In this document: positions 16,443-57,449 of the stretch, piece after piece | Layout of the letters: every line of letters begins with the position of its first letter | Position numbering within the stretch: position 1 is the first letter of the stretch | Source of the DNA: a phage | Strand: one strand, 5' to 3' | Length of the DNA stretch: 64,000 nucleotides | Sequence record: PZ445134.1 | Made by a program: the position numbers and the translations under genes | Notes under the pieces: generated by a model | Databases searched by the model: none | What the model was told of the DNA's origin: nothing | The model's input: the letters and a program-made list of their open reading frames with translations, nothing else

Positions 16443-16460
16443 TTTTATTTGATAGGGCTA

Positions 16461-16489
16461 CTATAACATAGCCCTATCTTGTTATAAAC
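16461..16489 (-). promoter_or_regulatory. T4-type early promoter
   Basis: minus strand GTTTAT, 17 nt, TTATAG, embedded in a 10-bp-arm inverted repeat (GATAGGGCTA/TAGCCCTATC). Confidence 0.45.
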
Positions 16490-35854: not shown

Positions 35855-36008
35855 TTTTAATCGTCTTAAGTAAACCGACAAAAGTAGAAAGAACCCAACC
35901 AATAAGCAGAAAACTTAAGAATATCGGACCAGGGGCCCACACACCTAAAAAGAAGCAAACCGAACAGACTATAGCCGTAATAAGTTCAATAAAAACTACG
36001 ATAATCAT
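35847..36008 (-). CDS. hydrophobic micro-protein, 53 aa (ac/stp position)
   Basis: Manual translation MIIVVFIELITAIVCSVCFFLGVWAPGPIFLSFLLIGWVLSTFVGLLKTIKND; GAGGAAA SD. Confidence 0.4.
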   Translation of the reverse strand: MIIVVFIELITAIVCSVCFFLGVWAPGPIFLSFLLIGWVLSTFVGLLKTIKND

Positions 36009-36094
36009 ATTTTCCTCATTAGCGTCCGAAGACGCCTTTAGTTTTAAGATTGTTACGATAGAACTGCATCACATGTTCGTTATGGAAATACTCA

Positions 36095-36541
36095 TTAGTA
36101 AGCCTGCAGGATGAATTTAAAGTTATCAGCCAACATACGGTTCATTTCAGTGAGTGTTTGATATTCTGATGTATGATTGCGAGTGAATGCCAGAGCCAAT
36201 TGACCTTTACCATAACCAGTGGTCAGCGGTTTCATGTTCTTAGCTGCAACAAAGATTACATCGTATTCAATATTGTTAGTGCCCATAGTACGGGCTAGTT
36301 GCGAACGACCTTGACGAATGTGAGAAAGAATTGCATCCAACCCTTGTTTAGAACGTTGACGTCCTACAAAGAATCGTGCTGCTACTTGTCGCCAATCAGA
36401 TGAACCTTTAACAAAGAAGTAAAAACCTTCACGAGAACGAAACTCTTTAGAAACTTCAGAACCGTATTCGCCATTACGAACTACTGCAACAACTTCACCA
36501 CCAACTGCCAGAAGGTCTTTACGAGTTAAATATTTAGACAT
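36095..36541 (-). CDS. ndd: nucleoid disruption protein Ndd (probable)
   Basis: 148 aa (T4 Ndd 151 aa); map position between 52 and denB; GAGGAA SD; promoter 36586-36615. Confidence 0.6.
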
Positions 36542-36585
36542 GCTAATTTCCTCAATTGATTAATGTTTTTGTAATCCATGAGAGC

Positions 36586-36615
36586 ATTATACTCTGCTCT
36601 CAAGAGTTTGTACAA
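36586..36615 (-). promoter_or_regulatory. T4-type early promoter (ndd)
   Basis: minus strand TTGTAC, 18 nt, TATAAT. Confidence 0.5.
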
Positions 36616-36617
36616 TT

Positions 36618-36818
36618 TTATTCGGTTATATCAGAACGTTCAAAAAGCTCTTCAACAGTTAAACATTCGGTGTCATCCTCAATAAAGAATCGGGTCCAAC
36701 ACGTTGGGGCGATGCAGTTATGAGTTTGGCCAGCTATAGAAGCTACACGAATAAGCTGCTGGCCATTATTCAGGACAAATTTTTCACCAATTTCAACATC
36801 TTTAAAAAGCTTAGCCAT
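36618..36818 (-). CDS. hypothetical protein, 66 aa
   Basis: Track ORF; promoter 36847-36876. Confidence 0.5.
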   Translation of the reverse strand: MAKLFKDVEIGEKFVLNNGQQLIRVASIAGQTHNCIAPTCWTRFFIEDDTECLTVEELFERSDITE

Positions 36819-36846
36819 TTTGTATTCCTCATGTTTTGATAGGACT

Positions 36847-36876
36847 ACTATACCATAATCCTACCTTGATGTAAAC
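36847..36876 (-). promoter_or_regulatory. T4-type early promoter
   Basis: minus strand GTTTAC, 18 nt, TATAGT. Confidence 0.5.
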
Positions 36877-36878
36877 AA

Positions 36879-36989
36879 TTAAATTACATTAAAATATGTT
36901 AAAGCCAACCATGTTCCAGTGAACGAACATGCGATGTAAAAACCCGTATCGCAAATTGTTCTTAGTACAATAAGAAGTGCATTTTTCAT
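36879..36989 (-). CDS. hydrophobic micro-protein, 36 aa
   Basis: Manual translation MKNALLIVLRTICDTGFYIACSFTGTWLALTYFNVI; ATG overlaps stop of the upstream 28-aa ORF. Confidence 0.3.
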   Translation of the reverse strand: MKNALLIVLRTICDTGFYIACSFTGTWLALTYFNVI

Positions 36990-37072
36990 AAGTACCTCAA
37001 TACAATTGAAAATATTATACAAATCATAGGGATACTAAGCAACCATATTCCGATCCACATTTTAGAACTCAT
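36986..37072 (-). CDS. hydrophobic micro-protein, 28 aa
   Basis: Manual translation MSSKMWIGIWLLSIPMICIIFSIVLRYL; ATG overlaps stop of the 87-aa gene (ATGA). Confidence 0.3.
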   Translation of the reverse strand: MSSKMWIGIWLLSIPMICIIFSIVLRYL

Positions 37073-37332
37073 ATCTCAACTTCCGCGAGTTCCATATATC
37101 CTTTGTTGATAACCTCTTTAAGGTCTTTAGAAAGAATAACATTAAAATGGTCGTTCATATGTCCATTAACTAAACGAGTTATTTCGGCTTCAGATGACAT
37201 ATAAGGCACGTCTGAGTCCCAATGAGATAGACCCAAATGGGTATAAATCATCCCTTCGTCATCTGCAGTGTTGTACATTGAAACAAATTCGCCTGTTACT
37301 TTATGTTTTGCGTAGAAAAATTTAAATTTCAT
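37069..37332 (-). CDS. hypothetical protein, 87 aa
   Basis: Track ORF; promoter 37359-37388. Confidence 0.5.
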   Translation of the reverse strand: MKFKFFYAKHKVTGEFVSMYNTADDEGMIYTHLGLSHWDSDVPYMSSEAEITRLVNGHMNDHFNVILSKDLKEVINKGYMELAEVEI

Positions 37333-37358
37333 GATGTTATCCTCTTTTAGATAGGACT

Positions 37359-37388
37359 ACTATATCATAGTCCTACTTAGTTGTAAAC
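37359..37388 (-). promoter_or_regulatory. T4-type early promoter
   Basis: minus strand GTTTAC, 18 nt, TATAGT. Confidence 0.5.
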
Positions 37389-37400
37389 ACTTTTATGAAA

Positions 37401-37958
37401 TTAAAGATGAAGATACCAGCCGTTGTAGTTGCTCTTGCGGACGATTTTCTTTAGGTCTTCATGGTCTCCCACGAACTTTATAGAATAAGAGAAGACGTCA
37501 GGTGAGGTTTCTTTGACATTCAATATAATAATACAGTCTGCAACTCGATGATTCAGGAATGGCCCTATGTTGATTCCGTTGCCACCCGGATAATCACCAC
37601 TGTATCCTGTGGTAACAGAAATCCATTTAGAATCCATCTGATGTGTCTTGACTTCTACACGAATTCCACAATATTTGGGATGGGCTAACACGTCCCATGC
37701 ATACGTGTACGGGTCTTCTACGTCTTCAATACCTTTATTAACATATCCGTCTAGCCAATTTGCTACTACATACTCTGCAAAGACCGCAACCTTACAACGT
37801 CGAACTACATCTTCTTTGTTTTGGTCAGGATTTTGGCTCAGGGAATACCGAGCAGTGTCAGCAATCTTCACCTTCATTTCACTAGTCAAAAACTCATTCG
37901 ACAGGATAAATGTCGGAAGATTCTTCAGTCTCAACAGTCCCAAGTTCGTCTTTACCAT
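37401..37958 (-). CDS. denB: endonuclease IV (probable)
   Basis: 185 aa from ATG 37958 (MVKTNLG...), which has a GAGGT SD, same length as T4 DenB; map position between rIIB and ndd; track ORF extends to 38021. Confidence 0.5.
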   Translation of the reverse strand: MVKTNLGLLRLKNLPTFILSNEFLTSEMKVKIADTARYSLSQNPDQNKEDVVRRCKVAVFAEYVVANWLDGYVNKGIEDVEDPYTYAWDVLAHPKYCGIRVEVKTHQMDSKWISVTTGYSGDYPGGNGINIGPFLNHRVADCIIILNVKETSPDVFSYSIKFVGDHEDLKKIVRKSNYNGWYLHL

Positions 37959-38181
37959 AGATACCTCTGATGTGTAGTTCGCCAAAATAAATGCGGTCTC
38001 CTTCTTCAAGATAGTTAGCATCTACCGGTGGGATTTCAATAACAACTTCGTCGCATTCTAACCAGCCGTAGTGTGCATCACCAGGATGTTTTACCAATTT
38101 AGCGCAATAAACTGATTTACACTTATGATGACCACGAAGATTAGCAATTTTGGATTCTGATACGTCAAATGGATGAATCAT
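37894..38181 (-). CDS. hypothetical protein, 95 aa
   Basis: Track ORF; single Met, so it overlaps the denB start by 65 nt. Confidence 0.4.
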   Translation of the reverse strand: MIHPFDVSESKIANLRGHHKCKSVYCAKLVKHPGDAHYGWLECDEVVIEIPPVDANYLEEGDRIYFGELHIRGIYGKDELGTVETEESSDIYPVE

Positions 38182-38202
38182 AATTACCCCTAAAGAAAAA
38201 AA

Positions 38203-57390: not shown

Positions 57391-57419
57391 TTTAACTCCT
57401 TAGTTGATTTGATAGGACT

Positions 57420-57449
57420 ACTATACCATAGTCCATCTATAATGTAAAC
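57420..57449 (-). promoter_or_regulatory. T4-type early promoter (sp)
   Basis: minus strand GTTTAC, 18 nt, TATAGT. Confidence 0.5.

Follow-up and report, generated by a model that had tools for sequence, protein, structure and literature searches.

Overlapping micro-genes between denB and ndd.1 in an RB69-like phage: a probable orthologue of T4 Ndd.6 and a genus-restricted companion frame

The window under study is the whole stretch of 64,000 nucleotides of phage DNA (sequence record PZ445134.1). An initial annotation, made from the letters alone, had described an 87-aa gene followed by ORFs of 28 and 36 aa, each ATG overlapping the previous stop as ATGA. Both statements were confirmed. The three frames lie on the minus strand at 37332-36879, and the ORF87/ORF28 and ORF28/ORF36 junctions are both ATGA, the start codon sharing 4 nt with the preceding stop. 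The features of the locus are the following:

37350..37388, minus strand: upstream cassette, a 10-bp stem-loop combined with an early sigma-70-type promoter; upstream limit of the module
37341..37344, minus strand: Shine-Dalgarno sequence of ORF87, GAGG, 8 nt 5' of the ORF87 ATG (read from the sequence)
37332..37069, minus strand: ORF87, 87 codons, ATG to TGA, the soluble lead gene of the tricistron
37072..36986, minus strand: ORF28, 28 codons, ATG to TGA
36995..36998, minus strand: Shine-Dalgarno sequence of ORF36, GAGG, inside the Leu25 and Arg26 codons of ORF28 (TTG AGG), 5 nt 5' of the ORF36 ATG
36989..36879, minus strand: ORF36, 36 codons, ATG to TAA
36838..36876, minus strand: downstream cassette, starting 3 nt after the ORF36 stop; promoter of ndd.1 and downstream border of the module

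The product of ORF28, MSSKMWIGIWLLSIPMICIIFSIVLRYL, has a strongly hydrophobic character, with a GRAVY of 1.61 and a Kyte-Doolittle maximum of 2.62 over 19 residues, and its hydrophobic core is flanked by K4 and R26. The product of ORF36, MKNALLIVLRTICDTGFYIACSFTGTWLALTYFNVI, is moderately hydrophobic (GRAVY 1.07), with a best 19-residue window of 1.56, about the usual transmembrane threshold, into which R10 and D14 fall. Both had been described as single-helix hydrophobic peptides, a description that is clear for ORF28 and marginal for ORF36. The Shine-Dalgarno sequence of ORF28 is weak, with just weak purine stretches 5' of the start. ORF36 leaves no spare room in its interval: it begins at the ATGA and stops 3 nt short of the downstream cassette. 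No known RNA element was detected by Rfam at E ≤ 1 in positions 36000-38200, and the RNA around the junctions showed no excess of structure over shuffled sequences (z +0.95).

Judged by its sequence, the window is from an RB69-like Mosigvirus: the region shares 98.7% identity with phage RB69 and is contained in 153 Mosigvirus records. The gene order is rIIB, ORF272c, denB, ORF87-ORF28-ORF36, ndd.1, ndd, ac, 52.1 and gene 52, and the order denB, ORF87, ORF28, ORF36, ndd.1, ndd is common to the window and RB69. In T4 and T2 the order is denB, ndd.6, ndd.5 ... ndd. Gene order and the comparisons described below identify the chain as the RB69-group version of the T4 ndd.6/ndd.5 pair, a correspondence overlooked by the initial annotation. 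In the RB69 annotation, ORF87 appears as RB69ORF270c and is followed by about 250 nt without a gene; ORF28 is unlisted. With 87 nt, ORF28 is slightly below the usual 90-nt cut-off of common gene callers. Most of the Mosigvirus records examined annotate ORF36 at most, as a hypothetical protein, and phage 55 (OQ599310) has both ORF28 and ORF36 annotated as putative transmembrane proteins, with ribosome-binding sites marked. The three products belong to PHROG families phrog_2390 (ORF87), phrog_8851 (ORF28) and phrog_18561 (ORF36). The feature must be considered already known because the T4 counterparts have been annotated for decades, PHROG families exist, and some Mosigvirus records list the genes. 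Tiny overlapping genes are thus an ordinary, previously catalogued part of the T4-type early region.

The idea that such coupling is unlikely by chance was examined with 20,000 dinucleotide-preserving shuffles, in which ORFs opening at a fixed ATG were counted when they reached 25 codons or more. A single ORF of this kind arose in 20% of the shuffles, and a second one of the same minimum length, coupled by ATGA, in 0.2%. The rarity of the coupled pair, as opposed to a lone ORF, indicates that the chain is not accidental. Coupling is, however, common in this genome: of the 76 coding-strand ORFs in the window that reach 80 aa or more, 22 have a stop overlapped by an ATG (14 of the ATGA type and 8 of the one-base type). 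Coupling is therefore normal gene packing here, not special to the locus; the improbability holds for the pair of small frames, not for the overlaps as such.

Both borders of the module are formed by copies of a 39-nt cassette motif that occurs four times in the window on the coding strand, with none expected by chance; two of the four copies bracket the module, and both of these fold into stems. The upstream copy carries a -35 TTTACA, a 17-nt spacer and a TG-extended -10 TATAGT (a 10/12 match in a promoter scan), and its fold has an energy of -13.5 kcal/mol (z -2.7). They match the PeSL (promoter-early stem-loop) elements that have been proposed as agents of gene shuffling where T4-like phages vary (Comeau et al. 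2014, PMC4122927). The content of this module differs by genus, in line with the description of ORFs flanked by PeSL elements in such hyperplastic regions (Arbiol et al. 2010, PMC2839356; Comeau et al. 2014, PMC4122927). The copies described here differ from PeSL elements in that the stem-loop overlaps the -10 hexamer and is not followed by a T-run; terminator activity is therefore not evident. The module nevertheless has the traits of a PeSL-bracketed variable module, with cassettes on both sides and with a lead gene and a slot after ndd.6 that differ between genera, and PeSL-type borders fit the turnover of both. No discussion of RB69 or of the ndd.6 locus was found in the searched text of the two papers.

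ORF28 is very probably a true orthologue of T4 Ndd.6 (ndd.6, T4p275, NP_049886, UniProt P39248, phrog_8851). It matches phrog_8851 over positions 1-28 of the 28-position profile (hmmscan E 3.7e-11), and has the same length as T4 Ndd.6, 28 aa. The two sequences align without gaps with 15 of 28 residues identical, giving a BLOSUM62 local score of 88 (z 11.5) that none of 2000 shuffles equalled, and about 46% of the residues differ. Their common residues include M1, S3, W6, W10, I14, P15 and C18. The arrangement is shared as well: ndd.6 and ORF28 lie on the same strand between denB and ndd, both have ATGA overlaps upstream and downstream, and both carry a GAGG in their last codons. A difference is found upstream, where the partner of ndd.6 in T4 is an 8-codon remnant and the partner of ORF28 is a full 87-aa gene. 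ORF28 also shows the traits that characterize the Ndd.6 family, namely 28-29 residues, a single hydrophobic helix with short polar ends, and a location on the early-gene strand in the denB-ndd interval.

Conservation of the frame was examined in 27 loci from IMG/VR, retrieved with Ndd as anchor, and in 4 annotated records. A frame of 28-29 codons resembling Ndd.6 was found in six lineages: Mosigvirus, Tequatrovirus, Dhakavirus, the CGG4-1 group (the lineage that includes Salmonella phage CGG4-1), Kanagawavirus and a Yersinia phage whose copy has a truncated C-terminus. At the nucleotide level the lineages are 57-76% identical to one another, yet frame, length and start position are constant and the motif MSSK.WC.IW...IP.IC..FS persists. 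Comparisons across genera give a dN/dS of mostly 0.2-0.45 in frame versus about 0.9-8 in the two alternative frames; T4 paired with contig L015 is a noisy exception without in-frame excess of synonymous change. Within Mosigvirus, ORF28 is matched full length at ≥90% identity in all 153 records, and 20 genomes show 5 synonymous changes, 2 conservative changes and no indels (pN/pS 0.09). We conclude with high confidence that ORF28 should be regarded as a real protein-coding gene. The seven residues shared with T4 that are named above are those invariant across five genera (n = 7). Conservation concentrates on one face of the helix (mean score 4.95 versus 0.90; shuffle P 0.04), a modest effect drawn from five lineages. 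As W6, W10, I14, P15 and C18 lie on that face and the other face is variable, a specific contact fits better than bulk hydrophobicity.

T4 Ndd.5, T4 Ndd.6 and phrog_8851 carry the label "outer membrane protein", which derives from computational prediction, given that the T4 product names read "hypothetical predicted". In an outer membrane protein one would expect an export signal plus a mature domain, or a lipobox, or a sequence able to form a beta-barrel; a 28-aa single hydrophobic helix has none of these. A lipobox consists of small residues before the cysteine. The conserved C18 is preceded by P-x-I and lacks one, and a lipoprotein was discarded for this reason. The label is thus almost certainly wrong for a 28-residue Ndd.6, which is better read, from its composition, as a putative small inner-membrane peptide. 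Pfam, NCBIfam and PADLOC models gave no match to ORF87, ORF28 or ORF36 except for a chance-level Pfam hit (E 0.22), and PDB sequence searches with ORF28 and ORF36 gave no meaningful match. As a working analogy one may think of AcrZ, MgrB and MgtS, small single-pass proteins of E. coli that regulate larger membrane proteins. Ndd.6 resembles them in size class, in having one hydrophobic helix and in its conserved face, but there is no sequence relationship, and Ndd.6 has no known partner.

The lead gene, ORF87, matches phrog_2390 (E 8e-43) and has a pN/pS of 0.11 in frame versus 1.3 and 1.05 out of frame. Its AF2 model has a pLDDT of 88.5; a fold search with the model gave no PDB match, and the BFVD matches were uncharacterised T4-like proteins only. 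In Mosigvirus, many Tequatroviruses, Dhakavirus and the Yersinia phage, a gene of the ORF87 family stands directly upstream and shares 4 nt with the Ndd.6 frame; the upstream CDS of Kanagawavirus overlaps Ndd.6 likewise, its kinship to ORF87 being unclear. The overlap recurs as ATGA or TTGA. Most Dhakaviruses, Kanagawavirus and the Yersinia phage start Ndd.6 with the TTG of TTGA, preceded by a stronger AAGAGGTG. In the CGG4-1 group there is another upstream gene, separated by a 9-nt gap, and Ndd.6 has its own AGAGG. Conservation of the overlap, together with the weak Shine-Dalgarno sequence of ORF28, fits termination-restart.

T2 and T4 lack ORF87 and retain its last eight codons (MKI[AV]EIEL*), which end in an ATGA on ndd.6. 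The T4 arrangement is that of T2 minus one gene, with the junction at a TAAAATG repeat. It is tempting to view the remnant as proof of selection for coupling. We rejected this view: as the junction lies at a repeat and the remnant carries the sequence just before the ndd.6 start, its retention may reflect a recombination site. Two individual variants deserve mention. In one Mosigvirus contig (L007), a stop interrupts ORF87 at codon 38 and both ORF28 and ORF36 are intact, and in an assembled variant (P0005) ORF87 is fused in frame with Ndd.6, although this is a single sequence and a possible assembly error.

The distribution of ORF36 is much narrower. The product matches phrog_18561 (E 1.4e-29); tblastn at E ≤ 10 retrieved only the 153 Mosigvirus records and no Tequatrovirus, and an exhaustive HMMER search of 1.84 billion representatives yielded a single cluster. 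The initial annotation had proposed conservation of the reading frames in related phages as a check: it was found for ORF28 in six genus-level lineages and, weakly, for ORF36 within one genus. In T4 the slot directly after ndd.6 is occupied by ndd.5 (T4p274, UniProt P39247, phrog_5011), and in T4 and T2 ndd.6 (28 aa) and ndd.5 (32 aa) overlap by 4 bases. T4 ndd.5 and ORF36 share the ATGA start, a GAGG 5 nt upstream and an early promoter directly downstream, and both encode small hydrophobic products, of 32 aa and 36 aa respectively. The sequences themselves show no such likeness. Identification of ORF36 as a diverged Ndd.5 was rejected (z 0.84; shuffle p 0.21), its family being phrog_18561 rather than phrog_5011, and no paralogue was detected among the other T4 ndd-region, ac, 52.1 and stp peptides (all z <1). 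The genus range differs too: Mosigvirus alone for ORF36 and, among the loci examined, Tequatrovirus alone for Ndd.5. On present alignments, ORF36 and Ndd.5 are best described as positional analogues, not demonstrable homologues.

In the other four lineages the ndd.6 stop leads directly to the next promoter, with no downstream coupled ORF, and ndd.6 ends in TGG-AAA-...-TAA or similar. A GAGG-N5-ATGA at the end of ndd.6 is found only in the two lineages with a coupled downstream ORF, Mosigvirus and Tequatrovirus (T4 and T2). This restriction speaks for real translation of the downstream ORFs.

Published experiments bear on the T4 homologues. Peptides as short and hydrophobic as these are easily missed by shotgun proteomics. 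In a time-resolved omics study, ndd.5 and ndd.6 transcripts were classed as early and neither protein was detected (PMC9697503, Table S2). Among the literature matches listed for T4 ribosome profiling there was no phage-infection dataset. In a dCas13d knock-down screen, values of about -0.25 for ndd.5 and about -0.23 for ndd.6 were obtained, and both genes were classed as "Not Fit" (PMC11879866, supplement). The T4 deletion sa-delta-9, which removes 52.1 through denB, still yields 50% of wild-type progeny, and infection with it no longer stimulates phospholipid synthesis (PMC6071114). The same source lists the products of ndd.1 to ndd.6 as uncharacterised; "host takeover", a role raised by the initial annotation, is there only a generic label for non-essential immediate-early genes of T4. 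T4 ndd.5 and ndd.6 are therefore dispensable under laboratory conditions; as the knock-downs have no fitness effect and sa-delta-9 is viable, there is no phenotype to anchor function.

With these data in hand, the reading that we favor, with a probability of roughly 0.6, is that the module is an immediate-early tricistron that supplies translationally coupled, accessory inner-membrane micro-proteins, and that Ndd.6 has a specific membrane partner. Host RNA polymerase would initiate at the early promoter near 37388-37350, and ribosomes would load at the strong GAGG of ORF87. Upon termination at the UGA within AUGA, they would restart on ORF28, whose own Shine-Dalgarno sequence is weak. The 28-residue peptide would span the inner membrane as a single helix, and its conserved face (W6, W10, I14, P15, I17, C18, F21) would pack on a specific membrane partner. 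Ribosomes that finish ORF28 would then start ORF36, aided by the GAGG in the last codons of ORF28, producing a second, less hydrophobic peptide present in Mosigvirus only, which may be a younger, lineage-specific companion of Ndd.6. Both peptides might play an accessory part in adjusting the host envelope at an early stage of infection, and the phage could do without them in laboratory hosts. That the peptides act through a specific membrane partner is the more tentative part of this proposal, and taken by itself we consider it somewhat short of an even bet.

The case for coding is weaker for ORF36 than for ORF28, and the conservation of ORF36 admits more than one explanation. ORF28 might be the only gene, ORF36 being a fortuitous frame in the 3' untranslated tail before the next cassette; its apparent conservation would then merely reflect the close similarity of all Mosigvirus genomes. 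One fifth of the shuffles yield an ORF of this size from a fixed ATG; ORF36 is found in one genus, where no copies differ by more than 5% in DNA; its hydrophobicity is borderline; and four other lineages do without such an ORF between ndd.6 and the promoter. Its pN/pS of 0.38 in frame compares with 0.63 and 0.96 in the other frames, the former not far from the in-frame value, and at least 3 of 153 genomes carry frameshifts (PECP20, KAW3E185 and F2). All three frameshifts, however, fall within homopolymer runs and may have arisen in sequencing, and at least 8 records share an in-frame 3-nt deletion. The changes observed within Mosigvirus, 10 synonymous and 13 mostly conservative, amount to a synonymous excess (binomial P 0.023) in a sample picked for the most divergent proteins, which biases the ratio upward, against coding. 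The GAGG at ideal spacing from an ATGA start, an arrangement limited to lineages with a downstream ORF, and the exact fit of the frame to its interval also argue against accident. Altogether, these observations suggest that ORF36 is probably coding, and we view the fortuitous frame as a rather unlikely alternative. A different proposal retains the chain and reduces the importance of its products: the act of translation would matter, with ribosomes shielding a short early transcript from Rho or RNases until the next stem-loop. Beginning with the lead gene, coupled frames do follow one another without a break as far as the next cassette, T2 and T4 retain a relay made of the 8-codon ORF and two micro-ORFs, and the downstream slot holds unrelated sequences in different genera. 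Such shielding leaves unexplained the amino-acid conservation of Ndd.6 across six lineages, and in four of these the transcript ends right after ndd.6; the proposal could still hold for ORF36 alone, but for the module we give it little credence.

If the peptides themselves matter, their mode of action may be conceived in other ways. Ndd.6 might be a membrane anchor or obligate partner of the ORF87 protein, made in fixed proportion through coupling, so that both would form one inner-membrane complex. The 4-nt overlap kept in Mosigvirus, many Tequatroviruses, Dhakavirus and the Yersinia phage, the compact folded domain that the AF2 model predicts for ORF87, its strong purifying selection and the P0005 fusion would all suit an anchor. 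However, T4, T2 and the CGG4-1 group keep Ndd.6 without ORF87, the contig with a truncated ORF87 has both micro-ORFs intact, and the fusion may be an assembly error as noted above; an anchor thus seems unlikely. Bacterial small hydrophobic toxins resemble the peptides in size and composition, and one may imagine unspecific membrane-damaging agents, similar to type I toxins or holins, that depolarise the inner membrane and help host shutdown. Many small immediate-early genes of T4 are lethal when cloned (Kutter et al., PMC6071114). A toxin of this kind would not demand one conserved face with invariant W6, W10, I14, P15 and C18 and a free opposite face, and the searches with Pfam, NCBIfam and PADLOC models yielded no usable match; in addition, the promoters are early rather than late and no lysis genes are found nearby. 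We consider general toxicity quite improbable. A holin or lysis peptide in the strict sense, which would be expressed late, linked to an endolysin and equipped with a charged C-terminal tail, was discarded, as the promoter is of early type, the neighbours are denB, ndd.1 and ndd, and the C-termini are RYL and NVI. Lastly, the peptides might keep the DNA of later phages from entering, the superinfection-exclusion role suggested by the initial annotation, for which early expression at the membrane would be fitting. Exclusion in T4 is ascribed to Imm and Sp, which are early envelope proteins. For the peptides described here, no annotation, phenotype or family link points to exclusion (PHROG, Pfam/NCBIfam, T4 knock-down and sa-delta-9 data), and this role appears highly improbable.

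A bolder version of the preferred reading, coupled micro-proteins with a specific membrane partner, is offered as a long shot. Ndd.6 might bind a specific host inner-membrane enzyme or sensor through one face, and the slot after ndd.6 might be a cradle for micro-genes. A candidate would be the factor in the sa-delta-9 interval that drives the stimulation of phosphatidylglycerol synthesis by T4. Ndd.5 in Tequatrovirus and ORF36 in Mosigvirus would then have arisen independently, perhaps de novo, using terminating ribosomes.

Nothing in this locus will surprise a T4 specialist, and the value of the analysis lies mostly in annotation and context: the RB69 reference leaves the micro-genes in a stretch without listed genes. 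The sole phenotype mapped to the block is the lost stimulation of phospholipid synthesis in T4 sa-delta-9, for which the micro-proteins are reasonable, if unproven, candidates. Ndd.6 is one of the better conserved among some 100 uncharacterised small early genes of T4, and the comparative data provide experimental handles on it: the invariant residues, the conserved face and the conserved AUGA/UUGA restart.

T4 and T2 carry an unannotated ORF of eight codons (MKIAEIEL or MKIVEIEL, followed by a stop), which is the C-terminal remnant of an ORF87 homologue and ends in an ATGA on the ndd.6 start:

T4 (NC_000866; locus L005), record positions 166993-167020: eight-codon ORF
T2 (locus L004), positions 1478-1504: eight-codon ORF

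A GGAG lies upstream of this ORF in T4, where the leader in front of the ORF is almost the same as that of imm.1 (off-target list, supplement of PMC11879866).

In locus L007 (IMGVR_UViG_3300029310_000125), codon 38 of ORF87 is changed from TGG to TAG; this nonsense change truncates ORF87, yet the downstream ORF28 and ORF36 are intact, and a 43-codon frame that starts at an internal ATG keeps the coupling to ORF28. An assembled protein variant of 115 aa (Logan assembly, P0005) is an in-frame fusion of the ORF87 homologue and Ndd.6 (...AEIGT-MSSLWWCFVWLISIP...). Because only one such sequence was found, the fusion is ambiguous: it may be a hint of joint function of ORF87 and Ndd.6 or an assembly error. 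In locus L019 (IMGVR_UViG_2974742932_000001, 2040-2291), the terminal GAGG of ndd.6 carries a GG insertion, and the lengthened frame of 83 aa reads on across ndd.5 and the next promoter. Either the normal C-terminus has been lost naturally, or the homopolymer was sequenced incorrectly.

Questions of annotation concern the following features:

Window 36986-37072, minus strand: ORF28
Phage ST2 (L002), 2386-2475: ST2 locus
Window 36526-36615, minus strand: 29-codon ORF with a TTG start
Window 37401-38021, minus strand: denB

Including its stop codon, ORF28 is 87 nt long, slightly too short for common gene callers, which require at least 90 nt. This is probably the reason that most Mosigvirus and Dhakavirus records lack an annotation of this conserved gene. 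In the ST2 record, annotated with PHANOTATE, the ORF28 counterpart is not called, and nearby ORFs of 90 and 111 nt are. The 29-codon ORF, annotated as a gene in ST2 only, overlaps the promoter region preceding ndd and is probably a gene-caller artefact. Counted from the first ATG, denB has 206 open codons; the annotated protein has 158 aa in the RB69 RefSeq record versus 185 aa in T4 and ST2, and the RB69 start has probably been called too far downstream. A longer denB would overlap RB69ORF272c (37894-38181).

A 39-nt composite early-promoter/stem-loop cassette (GTTTACA-N6-TAGGAnTATGnTATAGTAGTCCTATC) is found four times in the window, with 0 copies expected by chance:

16451-16489, minus strand: cassette copy
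36838-36876, minus strand: cassette copy
37350-37388, minus strand: cassette copy
57411-57449, minus strand: cassette copy

Their stem of 10-11 bp overlaps the -10 hexamer. The four cassettes look like PeSL (promoter-early stem-loop) elements of T4-like phages, which serve in recombination and regulation.
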